DNA of 64,000 bases, taken from positions 15,634-79,633 of the forward strand of contig CAYGZP010000001.1 in NCBI GenBank assembly GCA_964354405.1. The letters are read 5' to 3'. Of the stretch, positions 92 to 12,821 are shown in pieces. The notes beneath the pieces are model-generated. The model saw only the letters and a list, made by a program, of their open reading frames with translations, was not told the DNA's origin and did not search any database. The translations under genes and the position numbers were made by a program. The DNA comes from Candidatus Woesearchaeota archaeon. Lineage in GTDB: Archaea > Nanobdellota > Nanobdellia > Pacearchaeales > UBA284. Every line of letters begins with the position of its first letter. Positions within the stretch are counted from its first letter, which is position 1.

Positions 92-469
92 TTATCTTCT
101 TGCCAAGACAATCACTGCCCCAATCAATCCCAACACTGGCCCGATAACAAATCCGTGTGGTGCAAGTATCAGAGCGAACAGGCTCAAAACAAGCAAGAAT
201 ATCGCAGAGACTCTCGCAGTTTTATGTATTACATAAACCAAGACTATCATCAAGGCACCCAAGATAAAGGATATCAACGAAGCCACTGGTTCCATCGCCC
301 CCATCATCGATATGATCGCGGCAATCATCACTAAAATTCCACCAACCAATCCCAAGATATGTTCTGACTGAACAACTGAGACTTGTCTGGCAGCCGGAGC
401 TTTCGGAGCTCTCATCACTTTTCTTCTAGATTTCACTTTCTTTGCTTTTACTTTCCTCTTTTTTGCCAT
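92..469 (-). CDS. small membrane protein with lysine-rich N-terminal tail (hypothetical)
   Basis: 125-aa ORF. N-terminus MAKKRKVKAKKVKSRRK is followed by three hydrophobic helices. No family recognised. Confidence 0.35.
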   Translation of the reverse strand: MAKKRKVKAKKVKSRRKVMRAPKAPAARQVSVVQSEHILGLVGGILVMIAAIISMMGAMEPVASLISFILGALMIVLVYVIHKTARVSAIFLLVLSLFALILAPHGFVIGPVLGLIGAVIVLARR

Positions 470-491
470 GTATAGCCTATACTTTTGAGAT

Positions 492-878
492 TTAAAAAGT
501 TATCTTTGATTTAGAAAATCCATTAAGTGAAATCTGTTTAACTAATTTATGCATCCTTGCTTTTTCAATTTCTTTCCGTGAAAACCATTTATAATTTGTA
601 ACTTCGTCCATCTTTAGATTAATTCTTCCTTTATTGACCTTACAAATATAATGGAGAGTGTTTTTGCCATTGCGTTCTTTAAGTATATAAAATGGCTTTT
701 TCGCAATATTAATATTTAAATTAATTTCTTCCATAGCTTCTCTTTTCATGGCTTTTCTGTTAGTCTCTCCTTTTTCGACATGCCCCGCAACAAACATCCA
801 TATATCTAATTTTTTGTGATATATCAAAAGCAATTTCTTATTTCTAAAAATCAATCCCGCAGCGACCTCTTGTTTCAT
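492..878 (-). CDS. NUDIX hydrolase
   Basis: Nudix box GHVEKGETNRKAMKREAMEEINL matches the GX5EX7REUXEEXGU pattern; 128 aa. Confidence 0.6.
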   Translation of the reverse strand: MKQEVAAGLIFRNKKLLLIYHKKLDIWMFVAGHVEKGETNRKAMKREAMEEINLNINIAKKPFYILKERNGKNTLHYICKVNKGRINLKMDEVTNYKWFSRKEIEKARMHKLVKQISLNGFSKSKITF

Positions 879-944
879 AAAAATAAAATTTGTTAGAGAC
901 TTATAAATTTATTTAATTGTTCCAAAACAAAAGTTTCTTATTTA

Positions 945-983
945 TTAACCCCTCCTCAGTGACAAACCGAAAAGCTTATAAAT
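945..983 (+). promoter_or_regulatory. conserved upstream element A, copy 1: TTAACCCCTCCTCAGTGACAAACCGAAA followed by TATA-like AGCTTATAAAT
   Basis: Near-identical 38-nt element also at 3613-3650 and 11754-11792, each 20-40 nt upstream of a + strand start codon. BRE/TATA-like 3' half. Confidence 0.55.
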
Positions 984-1006
984 GTGAATCTCTTTAAAAT
1001 AAAACA

Positions 1007-1510
1007 ATGAAAGATTTAGTTAAGTTAGCAATGGCGATGTTTACGTTACTCTCTTTGTCTTGCTATCAAAAGGTAAAAAACGAAGAGAAATTTAAAGGCT
1101 GGTTTGCTTCAGCTATAATTTATGATTATCTTGGACAGGAAAAAAAGGCATTAGACTGTTTAGATTCTCTTCAAATCCATGCAAGAGAAGGAGAACTTCA
1201 ATTTTATAAACGATTGCCAAAAAAAAGGCTTCTTGAATTGTCCGAATGGGATTCTAGAGCTTGGATAGAGCGTGGAAAAATTTATAGAGAATTGGGGGAT
1301 TGTGAAGGAGCTCTAAAATGTTTTAGAACTGCTATTACTACTTATTTGGGAAATGGTGAAAGGTTTGAAAAGTTATCTGACTTGGATTCTTGGGATCCTA
1401 TAATTGCTTCTCGTATAGAAAGCGCTAAAACCTTTAAGGAAATGGGTGAAGAAAAAAGGGCTAAAAACTTTGGAAAAATTCTTGAAAAATATCTTAAGGC
1501 AAATTACTAA
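1007..1510 (+). CDS. putative lipoprotein with TPR-like helical repeats
   Basis: N-terminal signal with LSLSC lipobox-like cysteine. Helical repeats with W/Y/G/A spacing typical of TPR. Preceded by element A. Confidence 0.4.
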   Translation: MKDLVKLAMAMFTLLSLSCYQKVKNEEKFKGWFASAIIYDYLGQEKKALDCLDSLQIHAREGELQFYKRLPKKRLLELSEWDSRAWIERGKIYRELGDCEGALKCFRTAITTYLGNGERFEKLSDLDSWDPIIASRIESAKTFKEMGEEKRAKNFGKILEKYLKANY

Positions 1511-1525
1511 TCGCTTCGATTGAAC

Positions 1526-2596
1526 TTAAACTTTGATTAATTCTAAAATTCTATCTTTGTCTGTGGTATAAACAATCTCAAAGGCCTTAGCTTTAATAAT
1601 GGTCTCTCCTTTTTCTGCATTATGTTTTATATCAAAATTACCAATACCAAAACTACAGGCAGTTGACAAAGCTTTTAAAGGATAATTTTTACTTTCTGCC
1701 GAAATACAATAACTAGGGTCTGTTGAACAGCAAATGAGTGTCTCGCCTTGCGTCACTAATTTCACTATAGCATTTCTTAATTCTTGACCATCTTTGTACA
1801 ATTTTCCTTTTTCTACTTTAAGTGTCTTTTCTTTGGAGATATATTTTGCAATTGTTCCAACATTAGCAGTATATTGACTTAGCATCTGTTTTCCTGACTG
1901 ATCTGATTTGATAAGATATGCATTAGCTTCACTCCATGTCAGCTTCCTTTCATCTGGTTTAGAAAATTCTAAAGTTATGCCTGAAATTTGTAATTCTGGT
2001 TGAGTGTAAGGCCTCTGAAATCCACCATAATAGTAAGTCGAAATTATGCTGCCGGCATACATTACGTTATCTTTTTCTTCTTTATATCTTGGCACTGATA
2101 TTTTTCCGTTACTTATAATTCCATTCTTATCGAAGAATATGCTTGTTGAAAGATAATTTATTTGTGTTATTTTATCTTCTACCATAAACGAAGCGAGATT
2201 ACCAAGCATCGCAGCTATCCTATCTCCTTGGTCTACGTCCCTCTCTTCAATAAAAGTTTCTTCATATTGTAGAGCTGCTATAACACTGCTTAAAGGAGTC
2301 TGACCAACATAAGCTTCGTATTTTTGCTGCTGTTGATCATATTTAACATTAAAGGCGCCCCTAAGTTCTCCTTCATCATAAGTTAATCCATAAGTACTTA
2401 AATGATTTTGAACATTTTCTCGAGGAGTAAAGCAAAAGATAAGATGAAATGTGCCAATCTCGTCTTTCCATAAGTGTGCATATTTATTAGGGTCTTGAGT
2501 TGGAGCGCATCCAAAAATAGCTGTCGCAGAAGATGTTAGAAAAATACTTATTAAAATAAACAAGATAAACAACATAAACAGCACATATTTTCTCAT
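1526..2596 (-). CDS. secreted hypothetical protein
   Basis: 356 aa. N-terminal signal peptide MRKYVLFMLFILFILISIFLTSSATA. No recognisable domain. Upstream region is repeat C copy 1. Confidence 0.45.
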   Translation of the reverse strand: MRKYVLFMLFILFILISIFLTSSATAIFGCAPTQDPNKYAHLWKDEIGTFHLIFCFTPRENVQNHLSTYGLTYDEGELRGAFNVKYDQQQQKYEAYVGQTPLSSVIAALQYEETFIEERDVDQGDRIAAMLGNLASFMVEDKITQINYLSTSIFFDKNGIISNGKISVPRYKEEKDNVMYAGSIISTYYYGGFQRPYTQPELQISGITLEFSKPDERKLTWSEANAYLIKSDQSGKQMLSQYTANVGTIAKYISKEKTLKVEKGKLYKDGQELRNAIVKLVTQGETLICCSTDPSYCISAESKNYPLKALSTACSFGIGNFDIKHNAEKGETIIKAKAFEIVYTTDKDRILELIKV

Positions 2597-2654
2597 AATA
2601 AAATAAAACTTTTAAACTTTTTAAATTTATCTCGGTTTCGCAACTGTTCACTCA

Positions 2655-2772
2655 ACCACGACAAGCTTAATCCAGTATAACAATCTTCTTTAGTTTCAAC
2701 TGAAACAACCGATAACTTTGTATGCCAATTGATAGCTTATATTATCAAATGATAGAAAACATTCACTCAACC
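2655..2772. repeat. intergenic repeat C, copy 1 (about 120 nt, roughly 75-80% identical to 5347-5465) containing inverted repeat TTGATAGCTTATATTATCAA at 2729-2748
   Basis: Direct comparison of the two intergenic regions; both lie 50-170 nt upstream of minus-strand secreted-protein genes. Confidence 0.6.
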
Positions 2773-2810
2773 TTCATTCTTTTATCATTCAAGCAATAAT
2801 TCTTAGAACT

Positions 2811-3185
2811 CTAAGTATTGACAACAAGTTCTTTTTCAAAAATCTCATTAGCTTTTTTAGCAATAGTCCACTGCAATCTAAGCATCTGCCTTACTATTGG
2901 ATTTTTTTCATTAAGTTTAAACATTCTAGCCTTGCCAACCTTTCTTGTTTCAATTACAAGCCCTGCCTTAACAAACTCCGGCCAAAACGACATTAAACTC
3001 GTATAGCTTACTTCAGAGTTTTTTGCTATATCTGTTAAACTGTAATCGAAAGCTTGAAACGTAAGCAAAAAATCTAAAACTCTTAATTTTGGACTGTGCC
3101 CTACAACTTTTAAAAATATTGATTCTGACATATTATTTGCAAGAAATTGATATTTATAAATCCTTCTATTTTTAAACAATATCAT
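2811..3185 (-). CDS. putative winged-helix DNA-binding protein
   Basis: 124 aa, small basic alpha/beta protein with an HTH-like segment (SLTDIAKNSEVSYTSLMSFW). TATA-like CTTATAAATTTT about 40 nt upstream of the 3185 start. Confidence 0.35.
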   Translation of the reverse strand: MILFKNRRIYKYQFLANNMSESIFLKVVGHSPKLRVLDFLLTFQAFDYSLTDIAKNSEVSYTSLMSFWPEFVKAGLVIETRKVGKARMFKLNEKNPIVRQMLRLQWTIAKKANEIFEKELVVNT

Positions 3186-3246
3186 ACAAAAATGAAAACT
3201 TTCTTTTTTAAGAAAATTTATAAGTGTATTTCATCTTTATATTTTT

Positions 3247-3513
3247 ATGAAAGAAGAGGAGATCATTGCTACTTTATTAAAAAAACTGTATTTGGCTGGA
3301 AAAATAGGCCATAGCCATACTCCTTTTGAGAACTTGCCAAAGGGATTTCCCTCAAATATTGGGAAAGAAGTAAAGCAAATAGCAAAAATGCTTGCAAGGA
3401 AAGGCATATTAATTTTAAGTAAGCACAACTATGGCATTGGCGTTTCATTAAATCATAAAAGATTACAAGAAATAAAAGTAATTATTGAAAAAGTTTTTCC
3501 AAATATAGTTTAA
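3247..3513 (+). CDS. hypothetical small protein
   Basis: 88-aa ORF, no recognisable family. Confidence 0.25.
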   Translation: MKEEEIIATLLKKLYLAGKIGHSHTPFENLPKGFPSNIGKEVKQIAKMLARKGILILSKHNYGIGVSLNHKRLQEIKVIIEKVFPNIV

Positions 3514-3534
3514 TAAAATTATTGACTCCTCACT

Positions 3535-3612
3535 TCATCAAAACAGCCTTCTCCGGTTTCAATAATTCTTTAGAATCTTTTGGCTTTAGAAAAACAAAGT
3601 AAGTTATAAGTA
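3535..3612 (-). pseudogene. decayed fragment of a T9SS-like C-terminal sorting domain (repeat B), directly abutting element A copy 2
   Basis: Minus-strand translation gives ...GVNTYNLL.. and ..RIIETGEGCFDEV. Nucleotide-level similar to the 6519-6685 fragment and to the C-terminus of the 11821..12813 product. Stop codons and frameshift are present. Confidence 0.4.
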
Positions 3613-3650
3613 TTAACCCCTCGTCAGTGACAAACCGAAACCTTTAAATA
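3613..3650 (+). promoter_or_regulatory. conserved upstream element A, copy 2
   Basis: TTAACCCCTCGTCAGTGACAAACCGAAACCTTTAAATA, 22 nt upstream of the 3672 start. Confidence 0.55.
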
Positions 3651-3671
3651 TCTTAAACCATTATAAACATA

Positions 3672-4172
3672 ATGAAAAACTTAGAAAACAAACTTGGCTT
3701 CGGAGCAACTATTTTTAGTTTAATCTTAGCTCTATCTACAGCACTTTCTTGCGATAAAAAAGAAAAGGGTTTTGCTTATGTAAGTGAAGGCCCCCCATCT
3801 AAAGAAAAAACAGAAAATCCTGCTGAAATTTATATCAAAAAAGCTTTGAACTTTAAAGAGCAGGGGCAGCTTGACAGCGCCTTAGTTTATTCTACAAAAG
3901 CAATAAATAATCAAAGAATATTAGAAAGTGAGCAGGTAGGAAACATGCATTATCTTAGAGCCCAAATACACCAATATTTTAGTAGAAATAAAGAAGCCAT
4001 CGAAGATTATGAAGATGCAATTTACTGTTATTCTAGTAAGATGATGACAAAAGAATGTATTCCAATATATCTTGAAATGACAGAACTTCATGAAAAATTA
4101 GGCGATAAAGAAAAGGCAGAGGAATGTAAAAGATTAGCTGAAAGATTTGAAGAATACCGCAGAACACATTAA
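3672..4172 (+). CDS. putative lipoprotein with TPR-like repeats
   Basis: 166 aa; signal plus ALSC lipobox-like Cys. Helical repeat content. Same size and architecture as the 1007..1510 product. Confidence 0.4.
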   Translation: MKNLENKLGFGATIFSLILALSTALSCDKKEKGFAYVSEGPPSKEKTENPAEIYIKKALNFKEQGQLDSALVYSTKAINNQRILESEQVGNMHYLRAQIHQYFSRNKEAIEDYEDAIYCYSSKMMTKECIPIYLEMTELHEKLGDKEKAEECKRLAERFEEYRRTH

Positions 4173-4176
4173 TTCT

Positions 4177-5301
4177 CTAACCTCTTAATATTTCCATTAT
4201 TTTTATCAGTTCTTCCTCATTCGAAGGCTTTAAAATCTTAACATTCTTCGTTTGAATTTCAGTTGTGATACCAATTTCTTTTTCTCCTTCAGCAATAATT
4301 TTAAATTCACATTCTTCTGCTAAAGAATATTGCAACTTTCCATCAATTTCACCATAACAAAAAAGATATTCATTTTCTGCTTCACTAACTAAAAATGCTA
4401 AATTCTTACTCCTTAAATCAAAATAAGAAGAATAAAGAAAACGCTTGATTAGAGGAATCTTGACTCCTGCAACTATAGCGCCACTGCTATTTTTCTTAAT
4501 CAAAAAAGAGTTGTAAATCCAAGTATAATTAAACATCCCACTAATTCTTGTGAAATCTCTGATATTTAAAGCAAAATCTGAGCTTTGGTCTATAAAATAA
4601 GTTACATATGAACAAAAATCATCGCCAGGAAGATAGCAATAAATCTTTACCTTAGTATTTGGGGCATCCAACCAAAATGAGCCTAATTTATCATAAGTAT
4701 AACTTATTTTCATATCTTCTTCATAGGGTTCATCAAAAGCCTCATAAAAATACCATGCTTTTGTCTTTTCATCATGAATGCTATAGCTTCCCTTATTATA
4801 AACATAAATTTTCCTTTCGGTAAAATTAATTAAAGCCCTCTCGACCCGAATTTCCCAAGATGCTCTTTTGGCAACAATATCTCCAATTGAACTATCTTTA
4901 AACATAATCACTCCACTAACAATTCTTCCACTTTCATCAAGAGATAAATTTTCAATAATTCTGGCTCTTTGCCATTGCATCTCACGAAACAAAGAATCAG
5001 TTGTGTTAAAAATTCCTCGCATTTGTCTTTCATATTGTGGGAGTTCCTTGACTAAGTCGCTTATTTCTTCTTCTGAGAGCTCTCTCTTAATGATTATTTC
5101 AAACCAATAAGTACTTGTTTCGCCTGCTTCAATGAATTCATGATCTAAATCTTTAGCAATTAGATAAGTAAAAATCGCCCTGCCAGGAACATTGTTTACT
5201 AGCCTTATTGGAAGTGTTTGATCCTCTGCAATAACATTAGAAAACAATAAAATAAATGTTAATAATAACAAAATAGACAGTATTGGTTTTTTCAATTTCA
5301 T
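4177..5301 (-). CDS. secreted hypothetical protein
   Basis: 374 aa; signal peptide MKLKKPILSILLLLTFILLFSNVIA. Repeat C copy 2 lies upstream. Confidence 0.45.
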   Translation of the reverse strand: MKLKKPILSILLLLTFILLFSNVIAEDQTLPIRLVNNVPGRAIFTYLIAKDLDHEFIEAGETSTYWFEIIIKRELSEEEISDLVKELPQYERQMRGIFNTTDSLFREMQWQRARIIENLSLDESGRIVSGVIMFKDSSIGDIVAKRASWEIRVERALINFTERKIYVYNKGSYSIHDEKTKAWYFYEAFDEPYEEDMKISYTYDKLGSFWLDAPNTKVKIYCYLPGDDFCSYVTYFIDQSSDFALNIRDFTRISGMFNYTWIYNSFLIKKNSSGAIVAGVKIPLIKRFLYSSYFDLRSKNLAFLVSEAENEYLFCYGEIDGKLQYSLAEECEFKIIAEGEKEIGITTEIQTKNVKILKPSNEEELIKIMEILRG

Positions 5302-5346
5302 ACGAAAAGAAAATGTCGCGACCTTTTATAATTTATCTTTTATTTA

Positions 5347-5465
5347 ATCACGACAAACTTAATCTATTATAACAACTTTCTCCGACTTCAATCTAAACAA
5401 CTGAAAACTTTATCTCTCAATTGATAACTTATATTATCAACTGATAGAAAACATCCATTCACAAC
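5347..5465. repeat. intergenic repeat C, copy 2, with inverted repeat TTGATAACTTATATTATCAA at 5421-5440
   Basis: Aligns with 2655-2772 (cacgacaa.cttaatc...aactgaaa...caattgata.cttatattatcaa.tgatagaaaacat). Followed at 5500-5560 by a short repeat-B-like segment and a TATA (GATTTATAAAC) for gene 5586. Confidence 0.6.
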
Positions 5466-5585
5466 AGATTATCTCGTCTTCACAACTTTTTTTGTTGGCA
5501 ACCCAGCTTCTTCTGGCTTTATGAAATAAACTCTTAAAGAGAAAAAACGAAAGATTTATAAACAATTGTTAAATAATATTAACAT

Positions 5586-6095
5586 ATGTTAAAAATAATT
5601 AACGATTTAATGGTTTTTTTTGAAGATTGCTATAGAGAAATTAATGTAAGAGAATACGCCAAAATTAAAAAAATATCACCACCCACCGCCTCTAAACTAT
5701 TATCTTATTATTACTCTGAAAAGTTTTTAATGAAAAGAAAATATAAGAATTTACTTTTATTTTCAGCAAACAATCAAAATAAGCACTTTATTGATTTATC
5801 TAGAATATATTGGTCTGAAAGAATGAAAGAATTAATTGAATTCATAGAAAAAAGACTTATTTCTCTAACAATAATATTATTTGGCTCTCTTTCAAAAGCT
5901 GAAGTTAAATTAGATTCGGATATTGATCTGGCCATATTTGCGCATAAAAAAGAATTAAATATAGAAAGTTTTGAAAGAAAGTTCAAACGAAAAATAAGAA
6001 TATTTTGGTTTAAATCAGTAAAAGATATTAAAAGTAAAGAGCTCGCAAATAACATAGTCAATGGATATGTTTTAAAAGGGAGAATATTATTATAA
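5586..6095 (+). CDS. minimal nucleotidyltransferase (MNT) with N-terminal HTH-like region
   Basis: GSLSKAEVKLDSDIDLAIF matches the GS-x(9-13)-DxD polymerase-beta-type NTase motif. 169 aa. Confidence 0.55.
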   Translation: MLKIINDLMVFFEDCYREINVREYAKIKKISPPTASKLLSYYYSEKFLMKRKYKNLLLFSANNQNKHFIDLSRIYWSERMKELIEFIEKRLISLTIILFGSLSKAEVKLDSDIDLAIFAHKKELNIESFERKFKRKIRIFWFKSVKDIKSKELANNIVNGYVLKGRILL

Positions 6096-6097
6096 AA

Positions 6098-6511
6098 ATG
6101 AACTGGAGAGAATGCTGTAATAAAAGGATAGTAAAGAATGTAAACCCTGATTTAGATATGACAATCTCTCTAATCAAAAGTAGCGAGAATAAATTGAAAT
6201 CTGAAGAAAAACTTGTTATGAGCGCAGTAACTGCGAGTTCAAAAATTTCTCTTGTTTATGATTCATTGAGAGAACTTTTAGAAGCATTGGCTTTAAAAGA
6301 AGGATACAAAATTTATAATCATGAATGTTACACTGCTTTCATTAAAGAGATTATAAAAGAAAGTGACAGAGGAGACGAATTTGATGAAATAAGAAAGATA
6401 AGAAATGATGTGAATTATTATGGAAAAGAAATATCTGTAGAAGAGGCTGAAAATGTTATTAATAGAATAAAAAACCTAAGAGTTTCTATATCAAAATTAT
6501 TAAAAAAATAA
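6098..6511 (+). CDS. HEPN-like all-alpha protein, partner of the upstream MNT
   Basis: Start is 3 nt after the MNT stop. All-helical 137 aa. Conserved R..RN motif region (RKIRNDVNYY) lacks the canonical His. Confidence 0.4.
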   Translation: MNWRECCNKRIVKNVNPDLDMTISLIKSSENKLKSEEKLVMSAVTASSKISLVYDSLRELLEALALKEGYKIYNHECYTAFIKEIIKESDRGDEFDEIRKIRNDVNYYGKEISVEEAENVINRIKNLRVSISKLLKK

Positions 6512-6518
6512 CTAACCT

Positions 6519-6685
6519 TTACCTCATCAAAACAACCCTCTCCGGCTTTAGCAATTCTTTGCCATCTTCAGGTTTCAAGAAAACAAAGTAAGCCCCATTA
6601 GCCAAGCCATAAGTATTAATCTTATTGCCTTTTCCTTTATAAGCAATCTTCCCAGAAACGTCATAAAGATAATAATTTATCCTTT
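6519..6685 (-). pseudogene. orphan fragment of a T9SS-like C-terminal sorting domain (no start codon)
   Basis: Minus-strand translation is ERINYYLYDVSGKIAYKGKGNKINTYGLANGAYFVFLKPEDGKELLKPERVVLMR*. It has no Met and a stop lies upstream. Matches the LYDASGRKI...NGVYFV...KLTLLK tail of 11821..12813. Confidence 0.5.
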
Positions 6686-6795
6686 CTTAAAAAGGTTTTG
6701 AGTTAAAGAAAATTATTAGCTAAATCTTCAACTTTTTGTTGATTATTATTTAACCATTTAAGAAAATTTATAAAGCTTTTATTCTTATTCGTTAA

Positions 6796-7896
6796 ATGAA
6801 AAAAGAGTTCATGGATCCTTGGGGGGATACTTTATTAGATTATGAAAAAGCTGCAAAAAAATTTGGTATTCAACCTATTTCTGAAGAAATGAAAAAATTC
6901 TTTAAAAATAATAGATTTTTTTCTAGAAATATTATAATGGCACATAGGGATTTTGACAAAGTTTTTGAAAGAATAAAATCAAAAGAGCCCTTTATTCAAA
7001 TGACTGGAATAGCTTCTTCTGGAAAATTTCATTTTGGTCATAAAATGATAGTAGATTTATTTCTTTCTTTCAAGGAATACAATTCAAAAAATTATTTTGG
7101 AATTTGTGATATTGATGGATATGTTAGTAGGCCAGATTTTAAAGTGCCCTCTTTAGAAAAAGCAAAAGAATATGCTATTAATAATTTAGCTCATGTTCTT
7201 GCATTAGGATTAAATGAAAAAGATGTTTTTGTTCAAAGTAAAAAAGAACAAAGATACTATGAATTTGCTTTTGAATTAAGTAAAAAGATTACTGGAAATA
7301 TGTTTAAAGCAGTTTATGGTCATTTAGATTTAGGAAAAATTTCTGCTAATTTATTGCAATATGCAGATATTTTACATCCACAATTAAAAGAATATGAAGA
7401 TAGAATGCCAAGTATTACAGCGATAGGATTAGAACAAGATCCGCATATAAGAGTAACAAGGGATATTGCAAAAAGATTGCCTTATAATCTTGAATTGCCA
7501 AGCTCACTTTACATTATTTACCAAGGGGGTTTATTAGCTAATAAAAAAATGTCATCGTCACAACCAGAAACTGCTATTTTTCTCGATGATAGTGAAGAAG
7601 AAGCAGCAAAAAAATTAAGAAATTCATTTACAGGGGGGCGAGAAAACATAGAAAAACAAAAAGAACTTGGAGGACAACCCCCAATATGTAGAATTTTTGA
7701 AATATATAGATTCCATCATCCTAATGATGATTTTGTTAAAGAAATAGAAAAAAATTGTAAAGCAGGAAAATTAATGTGTAAAGATTGTAAAAAACAATGT
7801 ATAGATTTTATAATTTCATTTTTAAAAAATCACCAGAAAAAACTTGTAAAAACCAAGAAAATTGCTGAGAAGATGGTATTGAAAGATGATAAATAA
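6796..7896 (+). CDS. trpS: tryptophanyl-tRNA synthetase, archaeal/eukaryotic type
   Basis: Class I aaRS with HIGH-like GKFHFGH and KMSSS. Strong similarity to eukaryotic TrpRS blocks (EQDPHIRVTRDIAKRLPY; SFTGGRENIEKQKELGGQP). Cys-rich C-terminal tail. Confidence 0.75.
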   Translation: MKKEFMDPWGDTLLDYEKAAKKFGIQPISEEMKKFFKNNRFFSRNIIMAHRDFDKVFERIKSKEPFIQMTGIASSGKFHFGHKMIVDLFLSFKEYNSKNYFGICDIDGYVSRPDFKVPSLEKAKEYAINNLAHVLALGLNEKDVFVQSKKEQRYYEFAFELSKKITGNMFKAVYGHLDLGKISANLLQYADILHPQLKEYEDRMPSITAIGLEQDPHIRVTRDIAKRLPYNLELPSSLYIIYQGGLLANKKMSSSQPETAIFLDDSEEEAAKKLRNSFTGGRENIEKQKELGGQPPICRIFEIYRFHHPNDDFVKEIEKNCKAGKLMCKDCKKQCIDFIISFLKNHQKKLVKTKKIAEKMVLKDDK

Positions 7897-8935
7897 ACTT
7901 AATCCTTGGAAAATACCTACTTTAACACCTAAAATATATGAATACCTAATTAAGCATTATTCTTTACAACCTATAGATTTTAAATTAAAAAATAATCCCA
8001 TTTTCTTAAGAAGGAATTTAATAGTAGGTCATTATAAATTTTTAGAATGGTTAAAAAAAGCAGAAAAAGGAGAAAAAGTCGCTTTAGTAAGTGGATTTAT
8101 GACGAGTGGTTTTTTGCATTTAGGAAGTTTGGCTGTAATTAAACAAATAGTATATTATCAAAAAAACTACGGTGCTAAAATAATTATTCCAATAGCAGAT
8201 TTAGAAGCTATTTGTGTTAGAAAAACAAAAAAATCTGAAATAAAAAGAATTTTGATAGATTTTTTAGCTCATTTTTTTGCAACTGGTCTTTCTCCAAAAG
8301 ATACTTTAATATATTTACAAACTAAAAATTTAGAAGTATTAAAACAAGCAAGTTTATTTACAGGAAAGATTAGTTTAGAAAATCTAGAAAAAATATATGA
8401 TAGAAAATTAACTCTTGGAGAAATACACTCTTCATTAGTTATGGCTGCTGATATTCTTTATCCTCAATTTTTTAATTATAAAGGAACTTTAATTAATTTA
8501 GGAATAGATGAAATATGTCATTTTTCTCTTGTAAAAGAATTAATTCCTATATTAGGAAAAGAATTTTATATTCCTAGTATAACATACAATAAAATAATTA
8601 CAGGACTAAATGGATCTAAAATGGGCAAAAGCATACCCAAAAATAGCATACTTCTTCTAGATAAACCAAAAATAGCACGATCTAAATTAATAAAATTAAA
8701 AAACAAAAATATAGAATTATTTCAAAACACTGCTTTTAATATTCTTGAATGGTATTGCGAAGATGATTCTATAATTAAGAAAATTTTAAATATTTCTGAT
8801 AAAAAAGAAGCAAATAACTTGGCAATTAATGAAGCTTGTGATGTAGTTCAAAAACTTTTAGAAAAACATCAAAAAAAATATAGAAAAAATCTTCCAATAG
8901 CAAGAAAGATCGTAAAAGAATTAATGAAAGACTAA
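7886..8935 (+). CDS. tyrS: tyrosyl-tRNA synthetase-like class I aaRS (archaeal/eukaryotic type)
   Basis: GFMTSGFLHLGS (HIGH with the second His replaced) and GSKMGKS. Blocks LYPQ...GIDE...TGLNGSKM resemble archaeal/eukaryotic TyrRS. Overlaps the previous gene by 11 nt (operon). Confidence 0.55.
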   Translation: MINKLNPWKIPTLTPKIYEYLIKHYSLQPIDFKLKNNPIFLRRNLIVGHYKFLEWLKKAEKGEKVALVSGFMTSGFLHLGSLAVIKQIVYYQKNYGAKIIIPIADLEAICVRKTKKSEIKRILIDFLAHFFATGLSPKDTLIYLQTKNLEVLKQASLFTGKISLENLEKIYDRKLTLGEIHSSLVMAADILYPQFFNYKGTLINLGIDEICHFSLVKELIPILGKEFYIPSITYNKIITGLNGSKMGKSIPKNSILLLDKPKIARSKLIKLKNKNIELFQNTAFNILEWYCEDDSIIKKILNISDKKEANNLAINEACDVVQKLLEKHQKKYRKNLPIARKIVKELMKD

Positions 8936-8936
8936 G

Positions 8937-9914
8937 ATGAAAAAAACAATAAAATATAAGGCATTAGAATTGGGTAAAGATGGAAAGTTAAGAATTGTAC
9001 AAAAAGAATTATTTACTTCTAAACCATATGCAAAAATGATTTACAGTGGAATTTGTGGAACTGATAAACATGCAATAAATGGGTCTTTGAAATTAGATCT
9101 TCCAATAGTCCTGGGGCATGAAAATGTTGGAATAGTTAACGGAAAAAGAGTTACGTGGTCAACAATTTTACCATGCAAAAAATGCGCCAATTGCTTATGT
9201 GGAATGGAAAACATATGTGAAAAAAATCAATTGTTTGGAATAACAACAAGAAAACCAATGGCAGGTGGTTTTGGTGAATATACCCCTCTGCCCAAAAATA
9301 CAATATTATTTGAGATTCCTGATGATATAGACGATGATGTTGCTGTTTTAATAGAGACTATGGCAAGTACAAAAGCACTAAATAGAGTTAATTTAAATGG
9401 TAAAAAAATATTGATTATAGGTTCTGGTCCAATAGGGATGTTATCTGCAATTCACGCTAAATCTAAAGGTGCCGAAACTATAGGAATTACAGGGTATAAA
9501 GAACAAGTTAATTTAATAAAAGGCATCATTGATGAATTTTATGAAAAAAACATTCCTGTAAAGAAGATAAAAAGTGAATATGACATTGTTATGGATGCTG
9601 GAGGAAATGTTGGTTCACTTGACTATTCTGTTGAAGCGGTAAAACCAAGAGGAATTGTTATAGAAAGTGGATGCATGGTTAAAGATTTCTTCTTTGACAT
9701 TTCAAAATTAGTCAAAAAAGAACTTACAATGATTACGCAACTAGGTTATGTGCCTAAAGATTTCAAATGGGCTATAGAACTAATCAGAAAAAATAAAAAA
9801 ATATTAAAAAAAGTCATAACTCATAAATTTAAAATTACAGAATATGAGAAAGCGGTTGATGTTCTTAAAAATGTAAAACATGGAAAAGTTATGTTTTCTT
9901 TTAAAGAAAACTAA
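8937..9914 (+). CDS. zinc-dependent alcohol dehydrogenase family (MDR) oxidoreductase
   Basis: GICGTDKH and GHENVG catalytic-zinc motifs, structural-zinc Cys cluster CKKCANCLCG, and GSGPIGM Rossmann motif. Confidence 0.7.
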   Translation: MKKTIKYKALELGKDGKLRIVQKELFTSKPYAKMIYSGICGTDKHAINGSLKLDLPIVLGHENVGIVNGKRVTWSTILPCKKCANCLCGMENICEKNQLFGITTRKPMAGGFGEYTPLPKNTILFEIPDDIDDDVAVLIETMASTKALNRVNLNGKKILIIGSGPIGMLSAIHAKSKGAETIGITGYKEQVNLIKGIIDEFYEKNIPVKKIKSEYDIVMDAGGNVGSLDYSVEAVKPRGIVIESGCMVKDFFFDISKLVKKELTMITQLGYVPKDFKWAIELIRKNKKILKKVITHKFKITEYEKAVDVLKNVKHGKVMFSFKEN

Positions 9915-10687
9915 AGCTTATTCTTTTTGAGTATATTTTTTAATTTCTCCTTATTTAAATCTCCTATTTTAATATCCCCTACTTTTTGTTTATAAGTATA
10001 GACTTCTCCTATTGAATTAACAAAACATGAATCCTCAGGCATATCTTTTGCTTTACATGCATTAATGTTTAGATGGGGAAATTTGGACTTTATCTTTAAA
10101 ATTAGAGAATTATACTCCTCATGAGGAATAGAGAATTTTTTCTTGTATCTTTTGGCCTTATTTAGTGGAACAAATTCAAGTAAAAACCATTCATTTATCT
10201 TATAGGTCTTTAATATATCTCCGATATTTTGTATATCTGAAAAATTCAATCGGGTTATTAATGTTTTAATGTCAACTTTTATTCTGAGGTTATTGAATGT
10301 TTTAATTAAATATAATGTTTTGTTGAAGATGTTTCCGCTTTTTCTCATAATAAAACTTTTTTGGTTATTTGAGCTATCTAAAGTCAAACTAACTATATCA
10401 ACATATTTTAATATTTCTTTTGCTTTGTTTTTTGTAATATTCAGTCCAGTTATATGAGCGCTTATAGATAATCCTTTAGACCGAGCATACTTTAAAATCT
10501 CTAGAAAATCCTTGCAATAAGCAGGGTCCCCTCCACTAAGTATAATCCCTTTAAAACCTGCTTTGACAATTTGGGAAATTATAAACTTTTTGAAATTTGT
10601 TGAAACATCCCTATATCTTTTGTCCCAAAAACAAAAATTACAATTTAAAGGACAAGTGTTCCCCATAAGATAATATGCTATTTTCAT
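9911..10687 (-). CDS. radical SAM domain protein
   Basis: CPLNCNFC (Cx3Cx2C) near the N-terminus; GGDP motif; 258 aa. Confidence 0.55.
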   Translation of the reverse strand: MKIAYYLMGNTCPLNCNFCFWDKRYRDVSTNFKKFIISQIVKAGFKGIILSGGDPAYCKDFLEILKYARSKGLSISAHITGLNITKNKAKEILKYVDIVSLTLDSSNNQKSFIMRKSGNIFNKTLYLIKTFNNLRIKVDIKTLITRLNFSDIQNIGDILKTYKINEWFLLEFVPLNKAKRYKKKFSIPHEEYNSLILKIKSKFPHLNINACKAKDMPEDSCFVNSIGEVYTYKQKVGDIKIGDLNKEKLKNILKKNKL

Positions 10688-10722
10688 TTAATCAATAACA
10701 AGAAAAAGCTTTATAAATTTTC

Positions 10723-11703
10723 TTAAAAATTAATTTTCATGGCTTCTTGAGCTTCCTTTAATGTTTGTTTAGCTACTTTTCTTGCTATTTTGCTTGAATC
10801 ATATAAAATCTGTCTTACTTGTTCTCTTTTAGAAGAATAATGGGCTCTTGTTTCTCTAAATAAAGAAAAATGATTGTATAAAATATCTGTTAATTGTCTT
10901 TTACAATCAACACAACCTCTATGACCACTTGAACACTCTAATTTAAGTTGTTGTTTATTTGGATTATAATAATTGTGAAGCATATATACACTACATATTT
11001 CGGGATGTCCAATATCGGCTTTTCTTATTTTTTGGATATCTGTAATCATAGTTGTTACTTTCTTAAGGAGGTTTTCTTTATTTTCTTCTGGAGAAATAAA
11101 ATTCCCTAAACTTTTACTCATTTTCCTTCCATCAGTACCTAATACTTTAGGATTTTCTGTTAAAATTATTTTAGGTTCTGGAAAAACATAATCAAAGAGG
11201 CCATTAAATCTCCTTATGATTTCTCTTGTTAATTCAAGATGAGGTGCTTGATCTTTTCCTACAGGTATGTGGGTTGCTTTGTATAATGCCATATCTGAAG
11301 CTTGTAATATAGGATAACCAAGAATGCCATAACTAGGATTTTTAATTTTTTCATTTACAACTATCTCTTTATATACAGGACACCGTTCTAACCAAGATAC
11401 GGGTGTTATCATAGAAAGCAAAGTATAAAGTCCAGTGTGCTCTGGAACAAGAGATTGCAAGAATATTGTTGATTTATTAGGATCAATTCCCAAAGATAGC
11501 CAATCAATAACCATTTCAAAAATATTTTCTTTTATTTTTGAATAATCTGTTCTATCTGTCATTGCATGAAAATCTGCAACTTCAAAAAAACATTTTTCTC
11601 CTTCATTTTGTAGTTTTAACCAACTATCAACCACCCCTACAATATGACCTAGATGCAACTTTCCAGTAGGTCTCATTCCACTTAATATTACTTTTTTCTC
11701 CAT
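10723..11703 (-). CDS. trpS2: tryptophanyl-tRNA synthetase, bacterial type (second TrpRS)
   Basis: SGMRPTGKLHLGH, GIDPNKSTIFLQSLVPEH, PVGKDQAPHLELTREIIRRFN and KMSKS align closely with bacterial TrpS. 326 aa. Confidence 0.75.
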   Translation of the reverse strand: MEKKVILSGMRPTGKLHLGHIVGVVDSWLKLQNEGEKCFFEVADFHAMTDRTDYSKIKENIFEMVIDWLSLGIDPNKSTIFLQSLVPEHTGLYTLLSMITPVSWLERCPVYKEIVVNEKIKNPSYGILGYPILQASDMALYKATHIPVGKDQAPHLELTREIIRRFNGLFDYVFPEPKIILTENPKVLGTDGRKMSKSLGNFISPEENKENLLKKVTTMITDIQKIRKADIGHPEICSVYMLHNYYNPNKQQLKLECSSGHRGCVDCKRQLTDILYNHFSLFRETRAHYSSKREQVRQILYDSSKIARKVAKQTLKEAQEAMKINF

Positions 11704-11753
11704 ATTTTTTAAAATGACCTTTATTTTAAATATCTTTCTCGAATAGCGGCTTA

Positions 11754-11792
11754 TTAACCCCTCGTCAGTGACAAACCAAAAAGTTTAAATAT
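11754..11792 (+). promoter_or_regulatory. conserved upstream element A, copy 3
   Basis: TTAACCCCTCGTCAGTGACAAACCAAAAAGTTTAAATAT, about 30 nt upstream of the 11821 start. Confidence 0.55.
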
Positions 11793-11820
11793 CTCTTTAT
11801 CTTATAAATCATATCGAAAA

Positions 11821-12813
11821 ATGTCAAATATAATCACATTAGCCCAACTCATAGCCCAACTTCTAAACACAAATCCCCAAGACATGAAGAACACACAATT
11901 CATTCCTCTCAATCCAGTCCAATATGTCATGATAGATGAAAAAAAAGAAGAAAAAATAAGTCCAAGTCTTGCTGCGCCCATGTTTCATGGAAGGGTATGG
12001 AGAGATTTATATGGGGCTGGTGCAGATAGTGCAGATGTAATCATAACAAATAAAAATGGGATTGATACAGTTATGGCAAGAGTTGGAAGGACAGGGACAA
12101 CCAGTTATTACAGTAGAACTGTTCCAGATGGCTGGGGTTTAGTAATAGGAGATATAGTAATAATAAAAGCAAAAGATATTGATGGTGACAGTGCAAAAAC
12201 ATGGAGAAATGTTACAAGTGCAACCGGAGCAAATCTAGTTATTGACTTGTTCACAGAAAATGTATATAATACTCATAAAGGACACTCATTACTTATCAAA
12301 GCAGTTAAGGATGACTTAATTGATAGTGTTGATGCAAAGTGTTGGGTTAAAGGAAAACCAGATACATTGCAAGATAGATTCAGAAGGAATACTTCATTCT
12401 ATAACATTGCTTTCAACGCAGAAAACTTCCCAACAGCTTCAAGGCCAACTTTGGGAGACAGCATTTTTTTCAAGATGACTACAGGTACTTATGCAGCAGA
12501 ATCAAAAGGACTTTATTTAAATCAGTTTATCGACGGTGATACATTCCCTTCATGCTCATTAAGATTACTTGGCGTAACAGAAGAACAATTAGAAAGAAAA
12601 TTAAGAGATAATAGACTTATCATAACACCAAACCCTTCAAAAGGAATGATTGTCTTGCCATCTCAATTCAAAGGATTCTTGTATGATGCTTCAGGAAGAA
12701 AAATTATGGATATAAAAAATGAAAAACTTGATTTGAGAAATTACTCAAACGGAGTTTACTTCGTGACAGACATTGATAACAAACAAAGAGGAAAATTAAC
12801 TTTACTCAAGTAA
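11821..12813 (+). CDS. hypothetical protein with T9SS-type (Por_Secre_tail-like) C-terminal domain
   Basis: C-terminal 65 aa, ITPNPSKGMIVLPSQFKGFLYDASGRKIMDIKNEKLDLRNYSNGVYFVTDIDNKQRGKLTLLK, matches the consensus of bacterial type IX secretion C-terminal sorting domains. No obvious N-terminal signal peptide. Confidence 0.45.
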   Translation: MSNIITLAQLIAQLLNTNPQDMKNTQFIPLNPVQYVMIDEKKEEKISPSLAAPMFHGRVWRDLYGAGADSADVIITNKNGIDTVMARVGRTGTTSYYSRTVPDGWGLVIGDIVIIKAKDIDGDSAKTWRNVTSATGANLVIDLFTENVYNTHKGHSLLIKAVKDDLIDSVDAKCWVKGKPDTLQDRFRRNTSFYNIAFNAENFPTASRPTLGDSIFFKMTTGTYAAESKGLYLNQFIDGDTFPSCSLRLLGVTEEQLERKLRDNRLIITPNPSKGMIVLPSQFKGFLYDASGRKIMDIKNEKLDLRNYSNGVYFVTDIDNKQRGKLTLLK

Positions 12814-12821
12814 TTTATTAT

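Follow-up and report, generated by a model that had tools for sequence, protein, structure and literature searches.

We analyzed a 64,000-nucleotide stretch of DNA (the window; contig CAYGZP010000001.1 of assembly GCA_964354405.1) that carries three genes for aminoacyl-tRNA synthetases (aaRSs) of class Ic within 5 kb. An earlier note, made from the letters alone, had described them as an archaeal-type tryptophanyl-tRNA synthetase (TrpRS; here gene A), a co-operonic tyrosyl-tRNA synthetase (TyrRS)-like gene with HLGS in place of HIGH (gene B), and, 3 kb away, a bacterial-type TrpRS (gene C) that might signal horizontal acquisition and inhibitor resistance. All three open reading frames (ORFs) are intact where the note had placed them (Table 1), and all match Pfam PF00579 (class I W/Y synthetases), A at 115 bits. 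Because the ORFs of A and B overlap by 11 nt (ATGATAAATAA), the two genes are co-operonic, as had been proposed, and the HLGS motif of B is real. The host is a DPANN archaeon of the Pacearchaeota. Its window encodes TFB, aIF2-alpha, the tRNA-splicing endonuclease EndA, a GAN/RecJ-Cdc45-like nuclease, SRP54/FtsY, and giant beta-helix surface proteins, and at 90% identity or above, the TFB groups with proteins from metagenome-assembled genomes (MAGs) of "Candidatus Pacearchaeota archaeon"; host gene content was read from the 64-kb window plus approximately 3 kb, out of one 420-kb contig. Since the host is archaeal, the archaeal-type TrpRS is the native type, and the bacterial-type TrpRS is a gene of foreign origin. 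We hold the identity-level statements made here (gene identities, island, and synteny) with high confidence.

Table 1. Features of the synthetase-bearing island, in window coordinates.
Feature	Position	Strand	Length	Details
Low-GC island	490..12815		~12.3 kb	Holds all three synthetase genes and defense-like genes
NUDIX hydrolase	492..878	-		Left edge of island; Pfam NUDIX; PADLOC PDC-S07, 52 bits
Nucleotidyltransferase and HEPN-like pair	5586..6511 (5586..6095, 6098..6511)	+		Upstream of A; Pfam Polbeta, NTP_transf_2; PADLOC candidate defense system PDC-M05A/B
BRE/TATA promoter-like element TTTAAGAAAATTTATAAAGCTTTT, copy 1	6757..6780	+		15 nt upstream of the ATG of A
A, archaeal-type TrpRS	6796..7896	+	366 aa	HFGH 7030..7041; KMSSS 7546..7560; C-x22-C-x6-C-x2-C Fe-S motif 7687..7788
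B, TrpRS-derived paralog	7886..8935	+	349 aa	HLGS 8117..8128 (residues 78-81); IADLEA 8192..8209; AADIL 8444..8458; GIDEICH 8501..8521; KMGKS 8618..8632; no Fe-S motif
Zn-dependent medium-chain dehydrogenase (Tdh/polyol-DH-like)	8937..9914	+		Starts 1 nt past the stop of B; Pfam ADH_N, ADH_zinc_N, Glu_dehyd_C
Small radical SAM protein, viperin-like	9911..10687	-	258 aa	CPLNCNFC 10631..10654; Pfam Radical_SAM
Promoter-like element, copy 2	10704..10727	-		Overlaps the stop codon of C; 16 nt upstream of the radical SAM ATG; marks the proposed rearrangement breakpoint
C, bacterial-type TrpRS	10723..11703	-	326 aa	HLGH 11644..11655; KMSKS 11110..11124; C-x19-C-x6-C-x2-C 10903..10995

The middle gene turned out to be related to TrpRS and not to TyrRS. 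Protein B scored 203 bits against the archaeal TrpRS model NF008925 (cutoff, 451) and 127.6 bits against the TrpRS model TIGR00233 (cutoff, 176.75), compared with 38.8 bits against the TyrRS model NF006330 (cutoff, 220). Among proteins of known structure, its sequence matched Aeropyrum pernix TrpRS at 154 bits and Methanocaldococcus jannaschii TyrRS at approximately 45 bits. An AlphaFold2 model (pLDDT, 91.1; pTM, 0.90) predicts an N-terminal extension, a Rossmann domain, and a helical anticodon-binding domain with high confidence throughout, and the top 50 Foldseek matches to this model are exclusively TrpRS structures, the best being A. pernix TrpRS (PDB code 3a04; TMq, 0.83). We take Tyr32 of the M. 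jannaschii enzyme and Tyr34 of the Bacillus stearothermophilus enzyme to be the tyrosine that hydrogen-bonds the substrate hydroxyl in TyrRS; with a hand-entered M. jannaschii reference sequence, the corresponding residue is Val in 95% of 44 B-family members. The reference sites used for such comparisons were Tyr32 and Asp158 of M. jannaschii TyrRS and Met129, Asp132, and His43 of Bacillus TrpRS. The model scores, the sequence and fold matches to PDB structures, and the missing Tyr32 equivalent together exclude a TyrRS identity for B, which, on these comparisons, is best classified as TrpRS-derived but outside the curated TrpRS family.

B belongs to a family of its own. In an exhaustive search with a B profile, scores fell steeply past a handful of 50%-identity cluster representatives, which indicates that the family is small and discrete. 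It comprises approximately 46 cluster-level relatives at 36 to 91% identity, annotated as "hypothetical" or "TrpRS" and drawn from MAGs of Pacearchaeota, Woesearchaeota, and Micrarchaeota. Forty-one positions are invariant. The fourth position of the HIGH motif is Ser in 68% and Thr in 31% of members and never His, giving HxG[S/T]; bacterial TrpRSs also vary here, with Asn in 38% of our C-type sample. The KM[G/S]KS motif is invariant. B carries the archaeal ADxEA motif, a specificity helix with the Met and Asp of bacterial TrpRS, and a GxDE motif common to canonical DPANN TrpRSs, so that every ATP and tryptophan contact position is in a state seen in bona fide TrpRSs. Because all contact positions are TrpRS compatible, we infer that B binds tryptophan and ATP. 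The family also shows differences from its relatives: the four-cysteine Fe-S motif is absent from all 44 members searched, and the anticodon-binding domain is mildly less conserved, with an identity ratio to the catalytic domain of 0.61 versus 0.70 to 0.83 in true TrpRSs. Three Trp residues are invariant in B. By comparison, six canonical DPANN-type TrpRSs contain no Trp residue at all (L002:5924-7018, L006:7883-9016, L006:14323-15444, L007:7508-8791, L009:2649-3716, and L010:2617-3702, where L numbers denote the other loci and assemblies used here); these echo the Trp-free TrpRS-A1 of Mukai et al.

A neighbor-joining tree of 67 sequences (100 bootstraps), rooted on one TyrRS and with sparse TyrRS sampling, placed the core B family in a clade with 99% support. 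With a set of "short paralogs" of approximately 320 aa, B forms a group (92%) that is sister to archaeal TrpRS (joint clade, 87%) and lies apart from bacterial TrpRS and from TyrRS; the TyrRS outgroup was entered by hand, and the three PDB references were rebuilt from alignment printouts. Defined by HxG[S/T], KM[G/S]KS, a Trp-type pocket, and a TrpRS fold, this TrpRS-derived family is apparently undescribed, and the labels "TyrRS" or "hypothetical protein" on its members should be corrected whichever function holds. Ratios of nonsynonymous to synonymous substitution (dN/dS), calculated against two orthologous loci, were 0.20 to 0.31 for B, 0.11 to 0.13 for A, 0.16 to 0.17 for C, and 0.07 for the dehydrogenase. 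A, B, and C are thus intact class Ic synthetase genes under purifying selection, and no copy in the window is decayed. A pseudogene interpretation of B is ruled out by its 41 invariant residues, its dN/dS, and its confident model. Elsewhere, B is split into two ORFs in L015 (4915-5970) and L034 (7998-9080), which would reflect either frameshift and decay or sequencing error.

The two flanking synthetases are evolutionarily distinct TrpRSs, in agreement with the earlier note. A passed the TIGR00233 cutoff with 199.4 bits, reached 359 bits against the more specific archaeal model NF008925 (below its cutoff of 451), and found its best PDB match in A. pernix TrpRS (3a04; 246 bits). It is 53 to 65% identical to annotated TrpRSs of Aenigmatarchaeota, Diapherotrites (AR10), Woesearchaeota, Nanoarchaeota, and Bathyarchaeota. 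By sequence, A is a genuine member of an ordinary archaeal TrpRS subfamily with a four-cysteine Fe-S motif, and its identity to DPANN TrpRSs, including those of single-copy-looking genomes, suggests that it charges tRNA-Trp with tryptophan. C, on the other hand, passed TIGR00233 with 260 bits, and its best PDB match is the Fe-S TrpRS of Thermotoga maritima (2g36; 298 bits). The signature of the T. maritima [4Fe-4S] cluster, which lies in the domain that binds the anticodon, is C-x(21-24)-C-x6-C-x2-C (Han et al. 2010, PMC2954223). The four cysteines of C are in register with those of 2g36, but its x19 spacing falls outside this range, and A has an exact x22 spacing; a cluster is predicted from the motif in both. 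In organisms with multiple TrpRSs, the same study reported the motif in a single copy, unlike the present case, where both A and C carry it.

C is bacterial in type, but it is not a recent arrival. Its nearest relatives are Pacearchaeota proteins (58 to 92% identity), followed by proteins of many bacterial phyla (50 to 54%). In the tree, the Pacearchaeota C sequences form a 99% clade nested, with no donor resolved, within bacterial TrpRS (bacterial clade, 95 to 96% bootstrap). Thus, although the closest sequences are archaeal, the bacterial assignment stands. At least five lineages of Pacearchaeota have C-type and archaeal-type TrpRSs as neighbors (the window, L009, L010, L035/L056, and L041), so related genomes do carry both types. 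This linkage and the Pacearchaeota-specific clade inside bacterial TrpRS indicate that the transfer is old, and C is best described as an old, retained bacterial acquisition of the Pacearchaeota lineage. A recent bacterial-to-archaeal transfer of C alone is ruled out by this clade, by the ancestral operon described below, and by a base composition equal to that of its neighbors. The earlier suggestion of horizontal acquisition was supported, with two corrections: an island of foreign composition contains all three synthetases, and the bacterial-type gene was not a recent one-off import.

We surveyed loci obtained from exact-protein look-ups, GTDB genomes, and JGI metagenomes with local hidden Markov models. 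In approximately 25 distinct loci, from Pacearchaeota, Woesearchaeota, Micrarchaeota, and one bacterium of 67% GC, B adjoins an orthologous Zn-dehydrogenase and a full-length TrpRS. This linkage was present in all 11 loci that were counted first and in each metagenome locus added later, provided that its contig was of sufficient length. Three class Ic genes within 5 kb are far from a chance arrangement, and the arrangement recurs in approximately 25 loci. The identity of the TrpRS partner is variable: it is A-type in most Pacearchaeota and Woesearchaeota loci, of the canonical DPANN type in L002, L006, L007, L017, L034, and L055, and of the Escherichia coli type in the bacterial locus, L054. 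In L014, A-type TrpRS, B, and dehydrogenase are followed on the opposite strand by a canonical archaeal TrpRS, in the position that C holds in the window. Two loci (L051:2353-4491 and L052:3579-5717) have two tandem B-type genes, scoring approximately 250 and 546 bits on the B profile, between the A-type TrpRS and the dehydrogenase. Neither the window nor 15 related loci contained a gene for tRNA-Trp, and an Rfam search of the island gave no match. Weak evidence speaks against a pyrrolysine-like code expansion cassette with a dedicated tRNA and stop recoding: no module has a tRNA gene within it or close by, all three stop codons are used, and the standard code gives a coding density of 87%.

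The invariable partner of B, the Zn-dependent dehydrogenase, has orthologs across all B loci that are 46 to 81% identical and whose catalytic and structural Zn ligands never vary; its best PDB matches are archaeal L-threonine dehydrogenases (110 bits). Other enzymes come and go. A class I S-adenosylmethionine (SAM) methyltransferase of approximately 305 aa lies between TrpRS and B in at least 10 loci from two phyla, and its Pacearchaeota-type and Micrarchaeota-type versions are orthologous (28% identity; E value, 1e-29). The radical SAM gene of the window lies downstream of C on the minus strand and converges with the dehydrogenase gene. It is present only in the window and in L004, where an ortholog (58% identity) lies between A and B. 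Like prokaryotic viperins, its product matches a pVip model at full length (PADLOC PDLC02904; 91 bits; E value, 2e-26), and it lies on an island with defense-like genes; unlike curated viperins, it scores far below the NCBIfam cutoff (NF038283; 69 versus 180 bits) and has no kinase neighbor. That the gene occurs twice in the TrpRS module, at different positions, hints at a link to the module and not to defense.

Two further contexts place B-like proteins among small-molecule enzymes. The bacterial locus (L054:972-9406) encodes a radical SAM/SPASM protein, B (at 42% identity), the dehydrogenase (sharing 57% identity with the window copy), a TrpRS (390 bits to Yersinia pestis TrpRS), two PhyH-family 2-oxoglutarate (2OG) dioxygenases, and an enolase-superfamily fusion. 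All genes of this operon are codirectional, with overlapping stops and starts, and it looks like a candidate natural-product cluster. In two other Pacearchaeota (L009:2649-10981 and L010:2617-10981), a second multisynthetase cluster runs from a canonical archaeal TrpRS to a C-type TrpRS and has a short, B-related paralog inside. This paralog (approximately 320 aa) is TrpRS-like, with HxGN and KMSKS motifs, and its neighbors include a genuine TrpD (232 bits, above cutoff), a PaaK-like coenzyme A (adenylating) ligase, a truncated-looking aldehyde dehydrogenase, a RibD_C-type reductase, and a HAD/phosphoribosyltransferase; the cluster has the look of a further Trp- or ribosyl-related pathway centered on a B-superfamily paralog. 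From these contexts it follows that members of the B superfamily are repeatedly set among small-molecule enzymes, always beside a TrpRS.

The module of the window lies on a low-GC island, with a GC content of 0.294 versus 0.384 in the remaining window. GC content at third codon positions (GC3) is 0.10 to 0.28 in an unbroken run of 14 genes between 492 and 12813 (A, 0.14; B, 0.10; dehydrogenase, 0.19; radical SAM, 0.25; C, 0.16), and 0.34 to 0.45 in archaeal core genes and in the ORF at 92..469. The right junction was reproduced in L036, a separate Logan assembly from another sequencing run, and the left junction was reproduced in L037 to L040, separate Logan assemblies from other runs, where the sequence continues into the gene for HisRS (GC3, 0.41). 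Because both junctions recur in independent assemblies, the segment is a bounded island and not a chimera. We found no integrase and no att-type or flanking direct repeats at its borders. The nucleotidyltransferase/HEPN pair and the NUDIX gene give the segment what looks like defense island character. Similar GC troughs surround the module in two Micrarchaeota (L034, 0.34 to 0.41 versus 0.52 to 0.55 in the flanks; L006, 0.43 to 0.48 versus 0.53 to 0.56), while on other contigs of uniformly 29 to 32% GC, cassette relatives are compositionally native. This difference between the troughs and the native composition in low-GC relatives argues that the module is horizontally mobile among DPANN archaea. 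The genes flanking the cassette also differ in L041 and L035. A virus-borne module was considered and rejected, as no relative of B was found on IMG/VR contigs.

The gene order of the window itself appears to be derived. In its closest relatives, L041 (B 91% identical) and L035 (78%), the order is C-A-B-dehydrogenase on one strand, and the 34-nt spacer between C and A contains TTAAGAAAATTTATAAAG, the same element found twice in the window. The two window copies form a perfect 24-nt inverted repeat. Their 17-nt core occurs twice, against 0.26 occurrences expected, and two or more matches were seen in 2 of 100 shuffles (roughly, p 0.02). The element looks like an archaeal BRE/TATA promoter. On this synteny, the ancestral layout of the sublineage was a codirectional C-A-B-dehydrogenase array, and the simplest history is an inversion that carried C and its downstream spacer to the far side of the dehydrogenase. 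Through such an inversion, the radical SAM gene would have come to lie behind one copy of the promoter predicted for A-B-dehydrogenase. Because both would then lie behind the same promoter element, the radical SAM gene may be coregulated with the A-B-dehydrogenase operon.

Part of this picture has a precedent. Duplicated and foreign aaRS genes are already known, and odd TrpRS homologs of DPANN archaea and candidate phyla radiation (CPR) bacteria have been noted once, by Mukai et al. (2017, PMC5370408), who described extra noncanonical archaeal-type homologs (TrpRS-A and the TrpRS-A-like proteins), clustered with ORF1 in these groups, with function unknown. As in the present module, those clusters contain several TrpRS homologs, some with C-x22-C-x6-C-x2-C, and are sometimes followed by a bacterial-type TrpRS. 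However, TrpRS-A clusters always hold ORF1, which has no similarity to known proteins, together with genes for tRNA-Trp(A73), whereas the present module has a Zn-dehydrogenase with or without a methyltransferase or radical SAM gene. No candidate for ORF1 and no unassigned ORF lies beside or between the synthetase genes here. As the defining components are missing (no ORF1, no tRNA-Trp in the 15 loci, and no Rfam match), we reject equivalence; B and "TrpRS-A-like" were compared by description only, and the modules seem related but differently arranged. What appears to be new is a delimited TrpRS-derived family that keeps its adenylation motifs and is tied to one Zn-dehydrogenase and a TrpRS of any type, in a cassette that seems to travel between Pacearchaeota, Micrarchaeota, and at least one high-GC bacterium.

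Our preferred, still tentative interpretation, to which we give somewhat less than even chances, is that this is a horizontally mobile, TrpRS-centered cassette that makes a tryptophan-derived product through B, the dehydrogenase, and tailoring enzymes, with the TrpRS copies serving supply or immunity. B, which looks catalytically competent, would bind tryptophan and ATP and form Trp-adenylate, and possibly then Trp-tRNA. The dehydrogenase and a lineage-variable set of tailoring enzymes (SAM methyltransferase, radical SAM protein, and 2OG dioxygenases) would lead from there to the product. The full-length TrpRS of the cassette would keep tRNA-Trp charged, either to supply substrate or as an immune copy of the target, as in producers of indolmycin and chuangxinmycin. 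Modification of a Trp-derived intermediate is suggested because the dehydrogenase is invariable while the methyltransferase, radical SAM, and dioxygenase genes vary. Likewise, that the TrpRS neighbor can be of any type suggests a functional link to Trp-tRNA synthesis, through supply or immunity, rather than a fixed protein-protein interface.

Known systems resemble such a cassette in part. In the chuangxinmycin and indolmycin clusters, an embedded TrpRS copy provides self-resistance, and the pathways employ a methyltransferase plus a dehydrogenase on an acid derived from Trp (PMC5925218). The present module, like those clusters (with Ind0 and the cxn trpRS), places a TrpRS among enzymes that could build a Trp-derived skeleton, and L054 has this look; unlike them, it has no aminotransferase, P450, sulfur carrier, or transporter genes, its core is the aaRS paralog B, and its hosts are genome-reduced archaea. 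An extra copy of the target enzyme lies among tailoring enzymes, with TrpRS set by B, the dehydrogenase, and the methyltransferase, radical SAM, or dioxygenase genes in approximately 25 loci, and by analogy this layout resembles producer self-resistance more than acquired resistance. aaRS paralogs are also known in nontranslational chemistry (MshC, GluQRS/YadB, PoxA, VlmL, and HisZ; reviewed in PMC9437257). B resembles these cases in being aaRS-like and full length, with adenylation motifs intact and a nonhousekeeping gene context. A limited literature search turned up neither a TrpRS paralog with a linked dehydrogenase nor a class Ic ATP-dependent paralog with a dedicated dehydrogenase. If B does make a Trp-derived metabolite, it would represent a new route for recruiting synthetases into small-molecule chemistry and, in ultra-small archaea, a rare case of specialized metabolism that may bear on conflict between symbiont and host and on the discovery of TrpRS inhibitors.

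Several points weigh against a biosynthetic role. Searches of PDB, Pfam, and NCBIfam with the dehydrogenase, methyltransferase, and radical SAM protein returned generic family matches and no specific function. The tailoring enzymes are thus generic family members by sequence, and product, substrate, and activity are all proposed only. In the structural model, the full TrpRS architecture of B suits tRNA charging as well as biosynthesis, and its anticodon-binding domain is, by the ratios given above, only mildly less conserved than that of a true TrpRS. The DPANN versions have no aminotransferase, transporter, or regulator typical of antibiotic clusters, and secondary metabolism is not something for which DPANN genomes are known. 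Finally, the viperin-like gene and the nucleotidyltransferase/HEPN pair may be unrelated defense cargo of the island.

The main competing explanation, which we regard as possible but doubtful, is that B is an auxiliary TrpRS isozyme that charges tRNA-Trp. An Fe-S archaeal enzyme, an Fe-S bacterial enzyme, and cluster-free B would then form an interchangeable set for iron or redox stress, Trp scarcity, or TrpRS inhibitors, with the dehydrogenase linked for an unrelated or regulatory reason. The complete, confidently modeled TrpRS architecture, fold matches to TrpRS alone, and the TrpRS-compatible catalytic and Trp pocket positions are all consistent with this idea, as is the distribution of the four-cysteine motif, which A and C have and B lacks. 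Stress- or inhibitor-adapted duplicate aaRSs are, moreover, well documented (TrpRS II, indolmycin-resistant TrpRS1, and ThrRS T2; PMC9437257). However, an isozyme leaves the invariable dehydrogenase, the recurrent methyltransferase, and the dioxygenase operon of L054 without an explanation, and B falls below the cutoffs of all curated TrpRS models. In addition, many canonical DPANN partner TrpRSs have no Fe-S motif either, and for this reason we discarded an Fe-S-free backup TrpRS as a general explanation. Should B nevertheless be a third TrpRS isozyme, the locus would offer a natural system of coexisting archaeal- and bacterial-type TrpRSs for work on tRNA identity, orthogonality, and genetic code engineering.

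A bolder form of the biosynthetic interpretation, which we consider improbable, is that B and the dehydrogenase are the core of a compact, horizontally mobile pathway, with the methyltransferase, viperin-like radical SAM protein, or dioxygenases as its variable tailoring enzymes. From tryptophan, which B would activate as Trp-AMP, this pathway would make an antimetabolite of tryptophan, possibly one that mimics Trp-adenylate in the manner of an aminoacyl-nucleoside and so inhibits TrpRS, and the TrpRS copies would be immunity genes. If so, genome-reduced DPANN episymbionts would carry a chemical weapon or host manipulation tool directed against translation, and B would be the first class Ic aaRS-derived biosynthetic enzyme that keeps its ATP chemistry.

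We think it quite unlikely that B is instead a dedicated partner subunit, paired as a heterodimer with the full-length TrpRS beside it. Such a pair would be an asymmetric enzyme whose handling of tRNA or substrate is altered, like the pseudo-dimeric TyrRS of Leishmania. Dimerization is obligatory for class Ic enzymes, which bind tRNA across their subunits, and a TrpRS always adjoins B. The stop/start overlaps in Pacearchaeota (11 nt for the window genes, 4 nt in both L002 and L014) suggest translational coupling, and the anticodon-binding domain of B is somewhat less constrained than its catalytic domain. Mukai et al. raised this possibility for their TrpRS-A/ORF1 pair (PMC5370408). Nevertheless, the partner of B comes from three divergent TrpRS types, including the E. 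coli type in L054, which makes a conserved interface unlikely; B keeps a full catalytic site of its own; TrpRS and B are separated by other genes in Micrarchaeota; and the dehydrogenase is again left unexplained.

Less probable still is the view closest to the earlier note, in which B is a TyrRS variant accompanied by a recently acquired foreign TrpRS that makes its host resistant to external inhibitors of TrpRS, for example indolmycin or chuangxinmycin. Two TrpRSs from different domains would indeed differ in inhibitor sensitivity, and the region was horizontally acquired. C also keeps the His of the ADxHA motif, which we take to contribute to indolmycin binding in bacterial TrpRS, whereas A has Asp and B has Glu at that position. 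Yet the TyrRS assignment fails every test, C is not recent (a Pacearchaeota-wide clade and an ancestral operon with A, B, and the dehydrogenase), and both TrpRS genes lie on one island with the same composition.

Finally, it is scarcely credible that the low-GC segment is an artefact, mis-binned or joined as a chimera to an unrelated contig so that its co-occurrence with the host is not real: the GC3 break at the island edge is sharp and chimeras can occur among MAG contigs, but both junctions recur in assemblies of separate runs, host-like composition returns on either side, and all genes, including identical copies of A and C, share one 420,182-bp NCBI contig.

The island and its surroundings have other features. 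A 59-nt repeat (TTATTAACCCCTC.TCAGTGACAAACC.AAA..., 75 to 80% identity) occurs at 942-1000, 3610-3668, and 11751-11809, directly upstream of three TPR/secreted-protein genes (starting at 1007, 3672, and 11821), and probably serves all three as promoter or leader. Upstream of the two unknown genes at 1526..2596 and 4177..5301 there is another repeat, of 123 nt (2647-2769 and 5339-5461; 78% identity). The 330-aa protein at the right edge of the island (11821-12813) has a weak match, below cutoff at 24.8 bits, to a Por secretion system C-terminal sorting domain, which is unusual for an archaeon. Giant surface proteins are predicted at 12822-18629 (1,935 aa) and 33353-40963 (2,536 aa), the former with NosD/right-handed beta-helix repeats and Cys-rich modules typical of DPANN cell surfaces. 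Just past the left edge of the window, beside the HisRS gene (L037:2997-3416), a low-molecular-weight phosphatase gene with a GC3 of 0.21, versus approximately 0.4 in the surrounding host-like genes, may be a further small foreign insertion.

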